From: Nostoc sp. DedSLP01
Lineage (GTDB): Bacteria; Cyanobacteriota; Cyanobacteriia; Cyanobacteriales; Nostocaceae
DNA length: 54,846 bases
Assembly (NCBI GenBank): GCA_034530875.2
Contig: JAVRCJ020000044.1
Location: forward strand, 1-54,846
Direction: 5' to 3'
The position numbers and the translations under genes are program-made. Position 1 is the first letter of the stretch. Every line of letters begins with the position of its first letter. Of this stretch, positions 6,098 through 14,199 are shown piece by piece. Below the pieces are notes generated by a model. The model was given only the letters and a program-made list of their open reading frames with translations. It was not told where the DNA came from and made no database searches.

Positions 6098-6865
6098 GTG
6101 CTATCTACTCTGCGTGCTGACTTTCGTATCATATTTGAACGTGACCCAGCTGCCCGTAACTGGTTGGAAGTTCTATTTTGTTACCCTGGTTTACAAGCTC
6201 TGTTATTGCATAGGCTGGCTCACTGGCTCCATACTATTGGCCTCCCGTTTATCCCGCGCCTGATTTCTCATTTAGCGCGGTTTTTGACTGGAATTGAAAT
6301 TCACCCAGGTGCAACAATTGGACATGCTGTGTTCATTGACCACGGGATGGGTGTAGTAATTGGTGAAACTGCGATCGTCGGAGACTATGCCCTAATTTAT
6401 CAAGGTGTTACCCTTGGGGGGACTGGGAAACAATGCGGTAAGCGCCATCCAACATTGGGCGAAAATGTTGTAGTGGGTGCAGGAGCGAAAGTCCTGGGAA
6501 ATATCCAAATTGGCAATAATGTCCGTATTGGTGCTGGTTCAGTTGTCCTTAGGGATGTACCTTCTGACTGTACTGTGGTGGGGGTGCCTGGTCGTATTGT
6601 TTATCGTTCTGGAGTCAGAGTTGCGCCATTAGAACACAATAACCTACCAGATTCAGAAGCCGAAGTAATTCGTGCTTTAGTCAATCGGATTGAATCGTTA
6701 GAAGATCAAATACAAAATCTTCAGCGTACAAATTCTTCAAATGAAGAAACTCCTGTATTGGCAGGTTCTTTAGCTGCTAAGGAAGCTGATTTATCACAAA
6801 ATGCTCCTGTATGTAGCCTCAGAGATAAAGCAATACAACAGTTTCTAGATGGTGCGGGTATTTAA
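6098..6865 (+). CDS. cysE: Serine O-acetyltransferase
   Basis: [28 protein letters not shown] and KRHPT hexapeptide-repeat motifs. Confidence 0.96.
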
Positions 6866-6922: not shown

Positions 6923-7507
6923 TTAAGGATTAATTTCTTCACAAAACCATTCTTGATTTTCATCGCGGTGATAAAACTTTCTATTCTGTGGTTCGCCGCG
7001 CAATTCTAAATGGTCTACTTGCACCGGGTCGAGTAGCAGCAAACAAAAATTAGGCACTGGTTGCACAGGGTCAGGTGCTGGTGGCTCAAAGGCTTGTGCT
7101 TCTTTGACTCTAGGTTTACCGGGATGAGGCCAAGCAAACTGTAAACGCGCTGCATCACTCAGTTCTTCCCACATAGAAATGCGTGCTGGCTGTAAATCTT
7201 CGTGGGAATTATCGTTACCTACCAGAGTCAAACAGCCAGCGAGACGAAATTGTTCTCGTGTGTTGGGAAAATACCAGCAAGCTTCTGCCCAAGGTTGTTG
7301 CTGTATTTGGTCGGCTTTGGCGCTACGGCTGTCGGTGACAAATTTTAGCTGGTTCGTTTCTTCTAGAAAGCCGCGAAATACTAGAGTCCGATTAGCGGGA
7401 TGACCGTTTACTCGTATTGTTGCTAATTGTAGGTAACGCGCATAAACAAGGCTGCGGTTGCGATGGAGGGCATGGGCGATCGCACTTCGCCAAGGAGCAA
7501 GTTTCAT
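6923..7507 (-). CDS. FMN-dependent pyridoxamine-5'-phosphate-oxidase-like flavoprotein (Npun_F5749 family)
   Basis: QLAT...RTLVFRGF, TDSRSAK, EQFR and VDHLEL motifs. Confidence 0.85.
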   Translation of the reverse strand: MKLAPWRSAIAHALHRNRSLVYARYLQLATIRVNGHPANRTLVFRGFLEETNQLKFVTDSRSAKADQIQQQPWAEACWYFPNTREQFRLAGCLTLVGNDNSHEDLQPARISMWEELSDAARLQFAWPHPGKPRVKEAQAFEPPAPDPVQPVPNFCLLLLDPVQVDHLELRGEPQNRKFYHRDENQEWFCEEINP

Positions 7508-7603: not shown

Positions 7604-8947
7604 ATGAGTTCCTTACCTGCTAATCGTGCTAATACTCTCAAAACTGCTTTTCGTGCTTGTGATGTTGCTCCTCTAGTAACTACTAAAGATATTGAACGCT
7701 ATTATGTTAATTTATCAAAAGTTCGTAAAACAGAAGCAATTGAAAGTATTAATGCTCGCTTACGCTGGTTGGAAGACGCAGAATTTTGCAGCCTTTTGTT
7801 TACTGGACATCGGGGATGCGGTAAAAGCACCGAATTAAGAAAGATTCAGCGAGAATGGGAATCTGAATATAAGGTTATTTATATTGAAGCTGATGCGGAA
7901 ATAGATATTTTAGATGCAGAATACACAGATTTGTATTTGGTAATTATTAAAAAAGTTGCTGATGAATTATACAGATCGGAATTAAATTTTAACGAGAAAC
8001 TTTTAAGCAATTTTGAATCTTGGTTTAAAGAAATTACCGAAGAAACTGAACAATCAGTTGAAAGGTCAGTCAGTGCTAGTGCTGAAGCACAAGCAGGAAT
8101 CAAGATTCCCTTTATTTCTAAGCTTCTCGGCAAAATTCAGGCTCAAATCAAAGGTGCTGACAAACAAAGAAAGACTGTGCGTCAGAACTTACAAAAAGAT
8201 ATTGGTCGCTTACAAGCAGATATAAATTTATTATTGGGTGATGCTTTTGTTAAGTTGAAATCCAAATATAAAAAAGGATTTTTAGTTATTTTTGATAACT
8301 TAGACCGAGTACCGCCAAATGTCGCTAAACATCTATTTTGTGATTATGCGGCTCAATTACAAAGTCTACATTGCACGATTATATATACAGCGCCGATTTC
8401 TATTGTCTATTCCGAAAATAATTTGAGCAATTCTTTTAATGCACCTAACATCGTGCCGATGGTGAATATATATGAATTTGAAAAAGACAAAACTGATTTA
8501 GCACATAATAAAGATGGCATCACAGCAATTGTCAGTGTAATTGAACAAAGAGTTGAAGTAGAGGCGGTCTTTGAATCGCGTCAATTATTGTTAGATTTAG
8601 CCAAAATAAGCGGTGGTCACATCCGCCAATTGATGCAAATTGCATCACAAGCATTTATTACAGCAGCAACTCGCGGTCACGATAAAGTTACTGCTGAAGA
8701 TATCACTTATGCAATTAAACAAGAGCAATTTAATTTTGAACGCAGTATATCAACAGAACATTATTCAGCTTTAGCTGCGGTATGTATAAATAAGGATGTT
8801 TCTAAAGATGAAATAGGCAGGTTGATGCTGTTCAGTCTTTGGGTTTTTGAATACAACGGCAGAAATCGCTGGAATTACGTTAATCCAGTTGTGAGGGAAA
8901 TCAATGCTTTCCAAGAAGCACTCAAATCAGCCACAGGTAATCCCTGA
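7604..8947 (+). CDS. P-loop NTPase (STAND/KAP-like AAA ATPase)
   Basis: Walker A GHRGCGKS, Walker B LVIFDNLD, SGGHIR helix motif. Confidence 0.85.
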   Translation: MSSLPANRANTLKTAFRACDVAPLVTTKDIERYYVNLSKVRKTEAIESINARLRWLEDAEFCSLLFTGHRGCGKSTELRKIQREWESEYKVIYIEADAEIDILDAEYTDLYLVIIKKVADELYRSELNFNEKLLSNFESWFKEITEETEQSVERSVSASAEAQAGIKIPFISKLLGKIQAQIKGADKQRKTVRQNLQKDIGRLQADINLLLGDAFVKLKSKYKKGFLVIFDNLDRVPPNVAKHLFCDYAAQLQSLHCTIIYTAPISIVYSENNLSNSFNAPNIVPMVNIYEFEKDKTDLAHNKDGITAIVSVIEQRVEVEAVFESRQLLLDLAKISGGHIRQLMQIASQAFITAATRGHDKVTAEDITYAIKQEQFNFERSISTEHYSALAAVCINKDVSKDEIGRLMLFSLWVFEYNGRNRWNYVNPVVREINAFQEALKSATGNP

Positions 8948-10463
8948 GTTACAAGAAAAAGAAACGTTTCTGCAAATAAATCAGCAGTCGTTAGCAGAAC
9001 TATTAACCTTTGTTGACTTTGCTGATACTCAGTTAACAATAGGATTTGTTGCTGTCAACTTTGCTAAAGATAGAAATACTTTAATTGAAATTCTCCAACA
9101 TCATCCCCAATGTCAAGATATTCAGTTTGAGATTCTCAATTTTGCCGATCCTAATTTGCGTTTTTTAAGGGATGAAATCATTAGCGATTTAAAAGAAATT
9201 AATTTAGAGGCAGATAAAAAATTAGTCTTAATTGTTATCGGTTTAGAAAAATCTATTGGTTTATCTGGAGAATATCCGCCTGTCCTGCAAGACTTGAATT
9301 TTGTCCGGGACGCTTTTACTAATAGCGTTCCTCACCCAGTACTGATATTTTTGCCAGACCATGCCCTAATACGCTTGGCAAAATACGCCCCAGATTTTTG
9401 GGCATGGAGAAAAGGAGTATTTTATTTCCAAACAGTTAAATCTACTCAAGAATTGGCTTTGGAAAAAACAATTCAGTCTGAAAGAATATTAGGAAGTTTA
9501 GATTTACCAGAAAGGCAAGAGCGTATTGATTTACTTGAGCGCTTGCTAATGGAAGAATCAACAGATGTAAGCACGCGCATTACTCTTTTAAAAGAGTTAG
9601 GGGTTGCTTATAGGAGTATTGGTGAGGCTAAAAGAGCAGAATATTTTTTGCTCAAAGCTTTGAAGTTGACTGAAGATAATGAAAATTTAGCAGGAAAGAA
9701 AGCAATCATTCTCCACGAACTAGGTTACACGTATTATGATTTGGGAGAATGGGAGAAAGCGATCGCACTGTACAATCAGTCTTTGGAAATAGAAGAACGC
9801 ATTGGTAATGTCCAAGGCAAAGCGGCGACGTTGCACTGTCTAGGAGTTCTCTACGCCAACAAAGGGGAAGTGGATAAAGCGATCGCACTCTACAATCAGT
9901 CTTTGGAAATAAAAGAACGCATTGGTAATGTCCAAGGCAAAGCGGCGACGTTGCACTGTCTGGGAATGATCTACGCCAACAAAGGGGAAGTGGACGAAGC
10001 GATCGCACTCTACAATCAAGTTCTTGAAATTGATGAACGCACTGGTAATGTCCAAGGCAAAGCGGCGACGTTGCACCAACTGGGAAATCTCTACGCCGAC
10101 AAAGGGAAAGTCGATCAAGCGATCGCACTGTATAATCAGTCTTTGGAAATAACTGAACGCATTGGAGATGTCCAAACCAAAGCGGCGACGTTGCACCAAC
10201 TGGCAATTCTCTACGCCAACAAAGGGGAAGTGGATGAAGCGATCGCACTTTTCAATCAGTCTTTGGAAATAAAAGAACGCATTGGTAATGTCCAAGGCAA
10301 AGCAATGACTCTGTGGTGGTTAGGGCATTTGGCAGAACAGCAGGGTGAATACACTAAGGCGATATTCTATTTGCAACCAGCTTTAGAGATTTTGCAGCGA
10401 TTAAAGGCACCGGATGCTGAACAGGTAAGGGCGATACTGGAGAGAATACAGAATCATTCGTAA
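8904..10463 (+). CDS. Tetratricopeptide-repeat protein with an N-terminal alpha/beta (possibly inactive NTPase-like) domain
   Basis: About 7 TPR units of 40 aa; ORF overlaps the ATPase 3' end; exact start uncertain. Confidence 0.85.
   Translation: MLSKKHSNQPQVIPELQEKETFLQINQQSLAELLTFVDFADTQLTIGFVAVNFAKDRNTLIEILQHHPQCQDIQFEILNFADPNLRFLRDEIISDLKEINLEADKKLVLIVIGLEKSIGLSGEYPPVLQDLNFVRDAFTNSVPHPVLIFLPDHALIRLAKYAPDFWAWRKGVFYFQTVKSTQELALEKTIQSERILGSLDLPERQERIDLLERLLMEESTDVSTRITLLKELGVAYRSIGEAKRAEYFLLKALKLTEDNENLAGKKAIILHELGYTYYDLGEWEKAIALYNQSLEIEERIGNVQGKAATLHCLGVLYANKGEVDKAIALYNQSLEIKERIGNVQGKAATLHCLGMIYANKGEVDEAIALYNQVLEIDERTGNVQGKAATLHQLGNLYADKGKVDQAIALYNQSLEITERIGDVQTKAATLHQLAILYANKGEVDEAIALFNQSLEIKERIGNVQGKAMTLWWLGHLAEQQGEYTKAIFYLQPALEILQRLKAPDAEQVRAILERIQNHS
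9721..10320 (+). repeat. Five near-identical 120-bp coding tandem repeats (TPR)
   Basis: Exact 120-bp period; each unit has GCGATCGC at 9759, 9879, 9999, 10119 and 10239. Confidence 0.95.
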
Positions 10464-10498: not shown

Positions 10499-11218
10499 TC
10501 AGGTGAGAGAATCAGGATCTACGCCGAGCGATCGCAACCGTTCTCGTAATAATTGGGTTTCTTGCTGTGCTTGTTGAGCTTCTTGTTTTGCTTGTTGAGC
10601 TTCTTGTTGAGCAAGTTTTTTGTCTTCCTCGGGTGTTAAAAACCTTTGTCCTTCTTGGTTATACCAATACAACCACTCGCGCTCAATGCCTAGATAAGTT
10701 CCCTGTTCCATACCAATTCCCAAACCAATCTCTGGTAGCCAAACAGGATTACCATCATGTAATTCATAAACATTGTTAACTAATTTGTAAACTTCTAAAC
10801 GTGGCTTACGGCGACGAAATGGATTGTAAACCACATAATACAAAATTCCCAATCTTGCATACTCTGCTTTCTTGGTTGAGTACTCGCCGCGATATGTCTG
10901 AGATACTACCTCCAGTGCTAATATCGGTACTTTCTTCTCTTCCCAAAGCACATAACTAGGGCGGAGGTTTCGATCGTAAAATCGCTCTACGCCCAAACTC
11001 AAAAATCCATCTGGGACTATCGCTGGTAAATCTGGGTCATGATAAATCCCCATATCTATACCAAAAAACCAATCCATACGTTCTGCCCAAACCATCGCTA
11101 AGATAACTTTGAGCAAACCTGGAATTATATTTTGTAATTCGTTATCCACTGGGGTATCGTCAGAGTCTGGCAGTTCCTCTGATGAGGGCAAACAAGCTAA
11201 TGGATTGTAATTTAGCAT
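10499..11218 (-). CDS. Uma2 family (DUF820) PD-(D/E)XK endonuclease
   Basis: LPDSDDTPVDNE, VPDGF, LEVVS and K..YA.LGI.YY motifs; C-terminal QQEAQQA coiled coil. Confidence 0.92.
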   Translation of the reverse strand: MLNYNPLACLPSSEELPDSDDTPVDNELQNIIPGLLKVILAMVWAERMDWFFGIDMGIYHDPDLPAIVPDGFLSLGVERFYDRNLRPSYVLWEEKKVPILALEVVSQTYRGEYSTKKAEYARLGILYYVVYNPFRRRKPRLEVYKLVNNVYELHDGNPVWLPEIGLGIGMEQGTYLGIEREWLYWYNQEGQRFLTPEEDKKLAQQEAQQAKQEAQQAQQETQLLRERLRSLGVDPDSLT

Positions 11219-11282: not shown

Positions 11283-11321
11283 TTAAATGAGAGAATCAGG
11301 ATCTACACCGAGCGATCGCAA
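11283..11321 (-). pseudogene. 3'-end remnant of a second Uma2 gene
   Basis: Encodes LRSLGVDPDSLI*; 33/34 nt identical to 10504-10537. Confidence 0.75.
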
Positions 11322-11558
11322 GCTTTTATAAGTGACAATCAGCTTCAAGATAGAGAAAAATTTACTTATAAATTTTTTGTAATAATTAAAACTTAGTAAA
11401 ATAATTATACTTAGGAGTAGTGAATATTATATATCATGAAGTTCTGTTGCAATTACTACGGCGGAACACTAGCGTAAAGTGGTCAATTTGACAATCTTTA
11501 ATCCTAAATCTACTTGGCGTATAGTCATAATCTGTTCGCACGCAACAAGACTTGATTT

Positions 11559-12785
11559 ATGGTTCAAAAGCTTGAAAGAAAACGCCAGAGTGCAGGGTTT
11601 CCAGAGACTGCCCCTGCTGCTAATCCTGTATTTTTTAGAACCTATAGCCGCCGTACTAAGGCAGGGTTGAGGGAAACATGGGATGAGGTATGCGATCGCA
11701 CTTTACAAGGTTTAATCGAGTTGGGAAAACTCGCAAGAGAAGAAGTTGCCATATTAGATCGGATGCAGCGCAATCTGAAAGCCATGCCTAGTGGACGCTG
11801 GTTATGGGTTGGCGGTACTGACTGGATTAGGAAGCCAAAGAATTTTTCCGGGGCTTATAATTGCACCTCCACCAACTTAGAAAACTGGAGTGCTTTCGGA
11901 TTAATGATGGATTTGGCAATGATGGGCTGTGGTACTGGAGCCGTCTTAGAACCACAATACATTAACCAATTGCCCCCCATCCGTAACCACTTGAACATCA
12001 CCGTACAAGGTGAAATTGGTAGTACTGTTAAAAATGAGCGTCGTGAATATACACAAACACATATAGAAGGTAACAAGGTTACTATCCACGTTGGAGATAG
12101 CCGTGAAGGTTGGGTTGAATCATATCAAACCCTGTTGGAACTTTCCACTAACGAAAGTTTTTCAGGAGATGTTGAAGTATTAGTTGATATCAGCGATGTT
12201 CGTAAAGCAGGAGAAACCCTCAACGGCTTTGGAGGAGTTGCAAATCCTGTGAAATTGCCAGGACTTTATCAGCGTTGTGCATCTATTCTGAATAAAGCCA
12301 AAGGACGACAATTAACTTCAGTTGAATGTTGTCTATTAATTGACCAGGCCGCTGTAACAATTGTTGCAGGAAATATCCGGAGGAGTGCGGGTATGCGTCA
12401 GTTTACTGCTAACGACAGTCTGGGAGCAACAGCCAAAGATAATTTATGGCAACAAGATGCAGAGGGTAACTGGCGAATCGATCCAGAACGCGATGCTTTG
12501 AGAATGGCAAATCATACCAGAGTTTTTCACCGCAAGCCGACATTAGAAGAATGTATTGGTGCTGTTCGCAAACAATATTATAGTGGCGAGGGTGCTATTC
12601 AATGGGCTGGTGAAGCTGTAGCCAGAGCAAATATAGATTTGTTGCCAACACAAGCATTAAAAGTAGATTTTTTGAATGCTTATAACCAAGGCACAGCAAA
12701 AGAATGGTTGCAAGAACGCTATCCTCAACTTGATGCTAAAGAGCTAGAACATCGTTTGGCTCGCTATGGGCTAAATCCGTGTGGT
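11559..12785 (+). CDS. nrdJ: Adenosylcobalamin-dependent ribonucleoside-triphosphate reductase, exon 1
   Basis: VFFRTYSR, PSGRWLW, YNCT and GNIRRSA motifs; ends at GLNPCG (catalytic Cys). Confidence 0.93.
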
Positions 12786-13125
12786 AATTGATTTTGCCTC
12801 ACGTTAAAAACCTCGCAAAAACGGGGAAAGCTGAGATGCTAATCCCGTGGTAATCAAAGGAAATAAAAAGCCTTTGACACCGTACAGCGTAGAGAGTGAA
12901 ACTAGATAATACCAATTCGTAATTCGTAATTTGCAATGGGCTTCACACCGTTGCTGGTATTAAACCTAAAATAGGGCTCTAGACTATAATCTCTCCAAGA
13001 GTGCGGGGGCAAATGTGAAAAATACTTTTATTCTTAAAGTCACATTTGCAAAATGTACGCGGAGCTACTGCAAATCATCAAGCAGTAGAACTAAAGGATA
13101 AAAAGCCTTTAGGATAACAAAATTG
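12786..13125 (+). ncRNA. Group I self-splicing intron (340 nt, no ORF) in nrdJ
   Basis: 5' exon ends in U and intron ends in G. P1 CGUGUGGU/GCCUCACG with U.G at the splice site; P10 UGAUUUU/GAAAUCA; P3 CCUCGCA/UGCGGGG; P4 CGGG/CCCG; P7 CAGCGUA/UACGCG. Removal restores NPCGEII. Confidence 0.9.
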
Positions 13126-14199
13126 GAAATCATCGGCTCTAATTTTCACTGTAATTTGTCTGAGGTTCACCTCAATCAAATTGACCCATTTAACTACAAA
13201 GAACAAGAGGAGGCTTTCACCGCTGGGGCGTTATCTGTAGCAGCACTTTTAAACCACAAATTCCAAGAACCACGCTATCAATACAGCCGGGAATTAGACC
13301 CAATTGTGGGAGTTTCTTTTACAGGTTTATTTGATTTCTTCGTTCATGCTTTTGGTGTTGATTGGCTGCGCTGGTGGGAAGCGGGAAGACCTGCAACTCC
13401 ACAAGGATTAGCGTTTAAGCGGGAGGAGGAGAAATATTTAAGTTTTTGGAAAGATACCGTGCATCGAGTTGTTTGGGATTATTGCGATCGCCACAATCTC
13501 AAACGCCCAAATCGCTGCACCACAGTCCAACCTAGCGGCACTAAAGCTTTATTAACTAATGCTAGTTCCGGATGGCATCCCCCCAAAGCACAGCGATTTA
13601 TTCGCCGGATTACTTTCGGGAAAAATGACCCCGTAGCTTTAGCTTGTATTGACTACGGTTACAATGTTATTCCCTCACAATCAGACAAAGACGAACACGG
13701 CAATTTACTCAACGATCCTTTCGATCCACGCGTCAGCGAATGGTTAGTAGAAATCCCCGTTGCTGTATCTTGGGCTGATTTACCTGGGGCTGATGAAATT
13801 GATGTTTCTAAGTTTTCAGTTTTAGCCCAATTTGATTTTGTCCAGCAAGTTCAGCGCCACTATGTGAGCCACAACACATCAGCAACTTTAGAACTGCGCT
13901 CTGATGAAATCGAAAGCTTGGGACAGCGAATTTACGATAGCATTCAAAATGATGAAGGATATATTTCCGCAGCTCTTTTAGCCAGGTTTGACGATTTGCA
14001 ATCCTTCCCACGTTTGCCGTTTGAACCGATAGATAAAGCAACGTGCGATCGCTTAACTCAAGAAGTTAAAGCACGACGTAAAACAGATGATTTCTGTGGA
14101 GCTTTAAGCCGCTATGATTTAGGTGAAATGTCAGAAGCCGGCCCTAGCGGCTGTGACTCTGATAAGTGTATGTTTCCTGCTCAGGAACCAAGCTCATAG
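13126..14199 (+). CDS. nrdJ: Ribonucleoside-triphosphate reductase, exon 2
   Basis: Begins EIIGSNFHCNLSE; TTVQPSGT motif; C-terminal redox pair GCDSDKC. Confidence 0.93.
   Translation, partial: EIIGSNFHCNLSEVHLNQIDPFNYKEQEEAFTAGALSVAALLNHKFQEPRYQYSRELDPIVGVSFTGLFDFFVHAFGVDWLRWWEAGRPATPQGLAFKREEEKYLSFWKDTVHRVVWDYCDRHNLKRPNRCTTVQPSGTKALLTNASSGWHPPKAQRFIRRITFGKNDPVALACIDYGYNVIPSQSDKDEHGNLLNDPFDPRVSEWLVEIPVAVSWADLPGADEIDVSKFSVLAQFDFVQQVQRHYVSHNTSATLELRSDEIESLGQRIYDSIQNDEGYISAALLARFDDLQSFPRLPFEPIDKATCDRLTQEVKARRKTDDFCGALSRYDLGEMSEAGPSGCDSDKCMFPAQEPSS

Follow-up and report, generated by a model that had tools for sequence, protein, structure and literature searches.

A Widespread Two-Gene AAA+ ATPase/TPR Module of Nostoc and Its Probable Role as a Split NLR-Like Switch

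Introduction

In classical STAND/NLR proteins the NTPase, the repeat sensor, and the effector are united in one chain. A two-gene layout, nSTAND2, has so far only been predicted (Kaur, Iyer, Burroughs, Aravind 2021, PMC8195603); that paper describes an operon of an active basal STAND protein and an inactive STAND-TPR protein (TPR, tetratricopeptide repeat), a conserved arginine in the inactive subunit, and a predicted hetero-multimer. Here we analyze a pair of overlapping open reading frames, ORF1 and ORF2, at positions 7,604 to 10,463 of a 54,846-nucleotide stretch of Nostoc sp. DedSLP01 (contig JAVRCJ020000044.1; this whole stretch is called the window). As in nSTAND2, one active and one inactive STAND-type protein form a two-gene module; the pair is split over two genes and has no recognised effector, which sets it apart from the classical proteins. 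We find that the module is real, widespread, and previously undescribed, and that it is probably a split NLR-like switch for defence or conflict. No description of the family was found in the accessible literature, with a mention in the supplements of Kaur 2020 still possible.

Several other systems resemble parts of the pair. EACC1 plus caspase systems were defined in Kaur 2020 (PMC7159879), and a preprint (Evans et al. 2025, PMC12642450) describes one system of EACC1 and caspase-STAND as a death module that phage triggers and that forms pores. An allele of similar layout, with an EACC1-like small gene, is found at the site of our pair in other strains, with the same TPR array and cap; it differs in that STAND and protease form one chain next to a separate small effector, whereas ORF1/ORF2 has no protease and splits the ATPase from the sensor. 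Fungal NLRs with high-internal-conservation repeats (PMC13449251) show a few hypervariable positions, length polymorphism, and exchange between genes. ORF2 is similar in its near-identical repeats, hypervariable positions, length polymorphism, and repeat exchange, but the fungal proteins are described there as single-chain NACHT/NB-ARC proteins with N-terminal effectors. Tmn, a YobI-family P-loop NTPase that acts in defence, with a membrane element within it (PMC13001434), and KAP NTPases such as PifA resemble the pair in placing a membrane element (in ORF1 a candidate one) within the NTPase domain and in having a sensor of helical repeats. Tmn differs by two true transmembrane helices and a same-chain sensor, while ORF1 has an amphipathic insert with beta periodicity, a sensor in a separate gene, and a fold closest to ORC/Cdc6; KAP/YobI proteins are marked by transmembrane helices within or next to the P-loop domain, and ORF1 has none of these. 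ORC/Cdc6 and TnsC, finally, share the fold of both subunits and the use of active and inactive subunits in one complex; differences are the identity of only 10–18%, the lack of any sign of a replication or transposition context at the pair, and the long amphipathic insert of ORF1.

Results

The two genes and their parts are arranged as follows.

7604..8947, plus strand: ORF1, AAA+ ATPase of 447 residues; ORC/Cdc6-like, with AAA+ core, lid, C-terminal winged-helix-like region, and a long insert between Walker A and Walker B
7805..7828, plus strand: Walker A GHRGCGKS, residues 68–75; G71, G73, K74, and T76 invariant in 36 non-redundant homologs
8057..8155, plus strand: amphipathic, beta-hairpin-like insert, residues 152–184; candidate membrane-inserting or oligomerising element
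8282..8305, plus strand: Walker B LVIFDNLD, residues 227–234; D231 invariant
8612..8626, plus strand: GGHxR motif; R341 invariant (36/36), contacts the partner in the complex model
8904..8947, plus strand: overlap of ORF1 and ORF2, 44 nucleotides, also 44 in close orthologs and 8–65 in most others
8904..10463, plus strand: ORF2, the partner, 519 residues
8943..9434, plus strand: pseudo-ATPase domain (N-domain) of ORF2, about residues 14–177; AAA+ alpha/beta fold without Walker A; no Pfam, PADLOC, or significant NCBIfam match
9306–9308, plus strand: invariant R135 of the pseudo-ATPase domain
9393–9395, plus strand: invariant D164 of the same domain
9752..10303, plus strand: TPR array of near-identical 40-residue units; positions 15, 23, 30, and 33 hypervariable, copy number differing between strains
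10287..10460, plus strand: C-terminal TPR cap, common to the caspase-STAND-TPR allele

An earlier note, made from the sequence, had described an intact P-loop ATPase (GHRGCGKS, DNLD) that overlaps a second frame with LVLIVIGLE, PDFW, and then a TPR array. All of these motifs and the 44-nucleotide overlap are present, and GxxxxGK[ST] is absent from ORF2. The structure model of ORF1 (predicted local distance difference test, pLDDT, 90.7; 53-row alignment) finds its best matches in archaeal and eukaryotic ORC/Cdc6 proteins (Foldseek, ORC2/Cdc6, E 3e-6; Cdc6/Orc1, Z 15.3, root-mean-square deviation 4.5, 279 aligned), followed by TnsC, archaeal ATPases, and NLRs, with CED-4 and plant NLRs at Z 9–13. 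Like the STAND/NLR clade, ORF1 has the AAA+ core of the ORC/Cdc6-STAND clade, a lid, and a winged-helix region. The note speaks of STAND NTPases; the protein is ORC/Cdc6-like and of the basal STAND type, with a GGHxR motif that we take to be sensor II of the AAA+ nomenclature, and not a classical NB-ARC or NACHT protein.

Neither ORF1 nor the N-domain of ORF2 has a match above the curated cut-off in Pfam or NCBIfam. Sub-cut-off P-loop matches and the TPRs are the sole yield of Pfam, NCBIfam, and PADLOC, the PADLOC matches being weak or missing, and PDB sequence searches with the ATPase and partner profiles gave nothing at E<0.001. ESM Atlas holds only unnamed or weakly KAP-labelled clusters. 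The KAP_NTPase profile is not listed for ORF1; it matches 42 of 53 homologs weakly at E≤0.01 (best 1.2e-8).

The model of the ORF2 N-domain (pLDDT 87.2; 86 rows) matches AAA+ cores as well (ORC2, E 1.4e-5; TnsC, Z 11.3, root-mean-square deviation 4.1, 164 aligned), so that the NTPase-like fold for which the note had proposed to look is indeed found in the model. Because this fold goes together with the absence of Walker A in all 115 of 115 partner N-domains, the reading of the domain as an inactive NTPase is right. Only two residues, R135 and D164, are invariant in the 60 non-redundant partner N-domains. A profile comparison of the domain with its own ATPase gave a probability of 1.5% and E 0.033, and an origin by duplication of the ATPase is thus unsupported. 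The domain, which has no Pfam family, is common: its profile matches 3928 clusters at 50% identity, and among cyanobacterial TPR proteins and giant WD40 proteins many begin with it.

In complex modelling ORF1 and ORF2 reach a score of 0.85, while the best of three controls gives 0.00. In the calibration, which excludes our own alignments and ligands, this mark is attained for 116 of 157 solved pairs and for 2 of 215 mismatched ones. The runs share at least 92% of their contacts, and the partner has a pLDDT of at least 80. The association for which the note had suggested this check is hence supported by the model against its controls. The modelled interface brings ATPase residues 70–71, 232, 235, and 341, on the nucleotide side, together with partner residues 129–139 and 163–174, and the invariant R135 and D164 fall within these stretches. 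In AAA+ chemistry, a neighbouring subunit supplies an arginine to the active site. The ATPase columns 262–286, from sensor 1 to strand 5, hold an arginine in at most 25% of 36 homologs. Because R135 is invariant (60/60) and the ATPase has no conserved arginine finger, R135 likely supplies the finger in trans and would so act in a nucleotide switch.

ATPase and partner occur together far beyond chance. In the GTDB scan, where the 80 best of 89 relatives yielded 79 loci, the N-domain follows the ATPase in 76 loci; of the other three, two break off within the ATPase at a contig end and one carries a deletion. Among the metagenome loci (best 80 of at least 476 matches), the partner is present in 64, less than 600 nucleotides of room is left in nine, and seven have no partner. 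In the phylum of a Parabeggiatoa record (L065) the ATPase is found in 10 of 401 genomes, and in eight regions fetched from it the partner lies directly downstream in seven (E 3e-12 to 4e-3), the eighth ending at a contig edge. Co-conservation of the two genes, as claimed in the note, is borne out by these proteobacterial regions and by both scans. Together with the folds and the complex model, it supports the split receptor of an active ATPase and an inactive-NTPase/TPR sensor that the note had proposed.

The family is common and multi-copy, and not a rare island. We found the ATPase in 71 of 251 genomes of the phylum, in 31 of 32 in the family of the source genome, and in none of 107 in the largest family sampled. 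The DedSLP01 genome has 10 copies, of which the other nine each have a downstream N-domain frame. Four of these nine partners carry TPRs only; five have a second Walker A domain (nSTAND1 where listed), and four of those five also WD40 arrays. Phage genomes and viral contigs contain no ATPase match, and nine plasmid records match at 25–31%. Of 23 close orthologs, 10 carry a broken ATPase, and so do 5 of 52 more distant loci that no contig end interrupts, counts that include some metagenome bins with possible assembly errors. A weak search, not aimed at ATPase-partner fusions, gave two matches to longer fused forms of ORF2.

One DedSLP01 paralog (contig C15, locus L117) has two small opposite-strand genes between ATPase and partner, which by reading of the sequence look like a PIN-type toxin-antitoxin pair. 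At L024:6625-8082 an internal deletion has joined a portion of the ATPase, in frame, with the partner's second half and TPR array, and G259:C626:7449-10251 holds two full-length family ATPase genes in tandem.

The best evidence here for an immune role of the pair is that its repeat array is shared with an alternative allele at the same site. We surveyed Nostoc sp. DedSLP01 and 24 genomes of the same genus for the DNA to the right of a cysE-like/oxidase gene pair; the nearest named relatives are Nostoc. The flanks of the site in the window are the following.

6098–6865: cysE-like gene, a label given by reading of the sequence and not by a scan
6923..7507, minus strand: pyridoxamine 5'-phosphate oxidase-family gene; with the cysE-like gene, the fixed left flank of the polymorphic site
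10499..11218, minus strand: Uma2-family gene (PF05685) adjoining ORF2, which confirms the neighbour named in the note; found behind both alleles in many strains, and not a conserved part of the ATPase/partner family

Across the 25 genomes, six carry the ATPase/partner pair (one broken) and one a remnant of it, nine carry another system (one broken), and nine have neither. The alternative allele consists of a gene of about 110 residues, followed by CHAT (caspase-type), a STAND ATPase, and TPRs in one protein; CHAT and STAND were confirmed, and the His and Cys motifs of the protease were both found in 11 of 13 copies checked. In genome G015 the flanks match the window on both sides (oxidase on one, Uma2 and then a split reductase gene on the other), with the other allele between them. 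In G019 a piece of the alternative allele's small gene precedes the ATPase/partner module. DedSLP01 itself carries the alternative allele elsewhere (C31:28706-32423, locus L121), followed by Uma2; its repeats and Uma2 share 85% identity with those of the window. On the flanking-gene tree the three states call for 8 changes (minimum 2) and are still clustered (shuffled mean 12.2); a tree of the C-terminal cap, itself poorly resolved, shows the alleles intermixed as at random. TPR units are 84.3% identical in nucleotides between the alleles, compared with 85.0% and 84.4% within them and 72% to non-Nostoc orthologs. Judged by sequence, the two alleles thus share an indistinguishable hypervariable TPR array. 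This sharing could have arisen by passive recombination between the repeats.

A 449-residue gene without NCBIfam match (L121:6931-8280) follows Uma2 behind either allele in several strains. In many Nostoc strains (L094, L096, L006, L019, L051) a low-complexity tandem repeat of about 21 nucleotides lies downstream of the TPR gene of either allele; it is absent from the window.

The TPR array consists of 120-nucleotide units at the DNA level (4.6 copies, 86% matches). At the orthologous Nostoc locus ORF2 varies from 480 to 720 residues, and the lengths are exact multiples of 40 residues in 12 of 15 complete, undeleted copies. We compared 119 internal units, 117 of them distinct; the pattern used to collect them has 13 fixed positions and overlooks some units, and we left out terminal units and those with frameshifts. 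The ratio of nonsynonymous to synonymous polymorphism, pN/pS, is 2.4, 1.9, 2.7, and 3.0 at unit positions 15, 23, 30, and 33, none of which is fixed by the pattern; the units are not independent, and the values are descriptive. Positions 30 and 33 match positions 6 and 9 of the TPR binding groove.

An effector was sought in the partners. Out of 197 partners, some perhaps partial, 163 match seeds of the N-domain and TPR type only, and seven of these have an uncovered stretch of at least 90 residues. Five partner proteins with uncovered stretches (24 stretches in all) were scanned and gave one CHAT, one kinase, and one CHASE2 domain. So an enzyme is lacking in most partners, and because of this the output is probably located in the ATPase.

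The candidate there is the insert, which lies between the conserved W140 and R193. It contains no hydrophobic transmembrane helix, but an alternation of polar and apolar residues instead. The best 32-residue window of two-residue hydrophobic alternation falls in the insert in 44 of 45 close homologs (shuffles 1–98 of 300, about 12 typical), a result that is clear in only three of eight distant paralogs; with a 16-residue window, no other stretch of the protein alternates as strongly in 27 of the 36 homologs below 60% identity. Among the 45 close homologs the face of even positions (156–168, 172–184) has no charged residue, and the opposite face is acidic on strand 1 (net −1.9) and basic on strand 2 (+3.0). 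An uncharged face together with alternation is the membrane beta-hairpin pattern of beta-pore-forming proteins. As an equal alternative to a membrane pore, the insert may form an oligomerisation barrel. Longer inserts of up to 83 residues, with apparent extra hairpin strands, occur in L166, L172, and L200.

The closest described system deserves a direct comparison. Among the three sub-cut-off matches of the genome to PF20702 (nSTAND2) is none of the 10 loci, and the ORF2 N-domain has no match. According to PMC8195603, a winged helix is present in the nSTAND2 partner, whose end is mostly HEPN or GT4, whereas the partner of our pair has an alpha/beta core, a short helical stretch, and repeats; we found no GT4 or HEPN effector in ORF2, which is N-domain and TPR only, or in the five scanned partners. 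The same source describes an arginine finger kept in both nSTAND2 subunits, and here the invariant arginine is in the partner only. Places 1–46 of its 104 nSTAND2 rows are all proteobacterial. By eye, six alignment rows show motif-level likeness, and one strong but fragmentary nSTAND2 locus was retrieved. The pair would work alike, but it is not a Pfam member of nSTAND2 and lacks the effector and the second finger. The MoxR-vWA iSTAND ternary system does not fit, as the neighbours are the oxidase-family gene and Uma2 and not MoxR/vWA genes.

Discussion

We infer a defence role for the pair, which we regard as probably a split NLR-like switch. The two genes, whose pairing is observed, would encode one complex. 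In it, the dead AAA+ domain of the partner would dock on the nucleotide site of the ATPase, as modelled, lend it the conserved R135, and may in this way control the nucleotide state. The TPR array, observed to vary by gain, loss, and exchange of repeats, would be the sensor of a ligand, presumably a phage or other foreign protein. Ligand binding may then drive the ATPase to oligomerise: it could nucleate assembly, as happens in sensor/helper NLR pairs, or release a brake that resembles a GTPase-activating protein. The output is probably in the ATPase; the hairpin 152–184 is a tentative candidate, a minority bet on our part, and might form a membrane beta-barrel that leads to cell death or arrest. 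In a bolder version, which we consider possible but rather doubtful, the ATPase is itself the killer: the pseudo-ATPase/TPR sensor would gate it by the trans arginine, its ring would unfurl the barrel of beta-hairpins, and the pair would represent a large, undescribed family of two-subunit immune receptors, interchangeable in function with a caspase and EACC1-type pore module that stands behind the same sensor array.

A number of observations weigh against a defence switch. Its presence in 31 of 32 genomes of the source family is more constant than that of most anti-phage systems. The copies sit among housekeeping-type genes, no defence island is seen around them on a reading of the frames without a systematic neighbour scan, and no PADLOC, Pfam, or NCBIfam family fits the pair. 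Five of the seven partnerless metagenome loci are intact orphan ATPases, two of them near-identical, and in some partners the last domain is a kinase or CHASE2. In the alternative allele, the small gene ranks first in the genome against EACC1 (PF19953), at a value below the cut-off (14.6 vs 23.6 bits, E 0.17). The complex result may reflect a likeness to solved AAA+ hetero-oligomers such as ORC, the model output gives no distance from R135 to ATP, and R135 lies in the helix after Walker B, one helix before the usual finger at the box VII position. As for the insert, AlphaFold models it as mostly helical (pLDDT 66–85, with 66–68 at residues 151–170), hydrophobic residues occur on either face of strand 2 (171, 175, often 179), which also fits an amphipathic helix, and the hairpins of distant homologs are much shorter and, in the most distant ones, too short for a lone membrane span.

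The constancy and copy number, the neighbours, the kinase and CHASE2 partners, and the orphan ATPases would all suit a general scaffold, for signalling or assembly, in bacteria with large genomes, in which the nucleotide switch positions TPR/WD40 scaffolds, kinases, and CHASE2 sensors and no defence role exists. We consider this unlikely, since the site has repeatedly been swapped with a caspase-STAND allele (the 8 changes of the flank tree), the repeats have hypervariable positions, and 10 of 23 close orthologs are broken and 9 of 25 sites empty. More improbable is a nucleic-acid-binding hetero-oligomer of the ORC/TnsC kind with its output at DNA or RNA, where insert and winged helix would bind the nucleic acid and the dead domain would be the receptor. 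The top structural matches to ORC/Cdc6 and TnsC, the Uma2 gene that is often adjacent in Nostoc, and the proposal of Kaur et al. 2021 (PMC8195603) that inactive STANDs are nucleic-acid receptors speak for it; yet Uma2 is absent from all non-Nostoc loci of the GTDB set, the insert has an acidic strand 1 and one face without any charge, and the residues invariant in the partner fall at its interface with the ATPase. A selfish, toxin-antitoxin-like cassette, with an ATPase that is harmful alone, a partner that neutralises it, and TPR variation as a by-product of repeat recombination, ranks lowest, and we give it very little credence. The ATPase is broken while the partner N-domain is intact in six close orthologs and the reverse holds in none of 13, a weak signal given that 6:0 has a chance of about 0.11 from the gene sizes (hand calculation). 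The intact orphan ATPases, the lack of matches in phages or viral contigs with only the nine plasmid records, and the concentration of variation at few unit positions with pN/pS above 1 argue against such a cassette.

If the split-switch reading is true, the proteins headed by the partner domain make up a large receptor repertoire, with 10 copies in DedSLP01, and a beta-hairpin pore inside a STAND-type ATPase would be a new coupling of sensing to cell death. The natural allele swap is a ready experiment, with one sensor array and two outputs.

Flanking Genes and Minor Observations

The absence of HIP1 from the ATPase gene, which the note had pointed out, is real and carries no information. With HIP1 at 0.89 per kb in the genome, a stretch of 1344 nucleotides lacks it with P = 0.30, so that the absence is chance and was rejected as a sign of recent acquisition; HIP1 is also absent from 5 of the 10 paralogous ATPase genes of the genome, and ORF2 carries five. 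A promoter scan found nothing. A direct repeat of 39 nucleotides (92%; 10504–10542 and 11288–11326) repeats the 3' end of the Uma2 gene upstream of that gene and is probably left over from a second Uma2 copy in tandem. Further on, a ribonucleotide-reductase-like gene (label by reading; 11559–14199) is split at NPCG|EIIG by about 340 nucleotides, for which Rfam gave no intron match. Group I introns start after T and end in G. The interruption likewise starts after T and ends in G, and the same break is present in genome G015.

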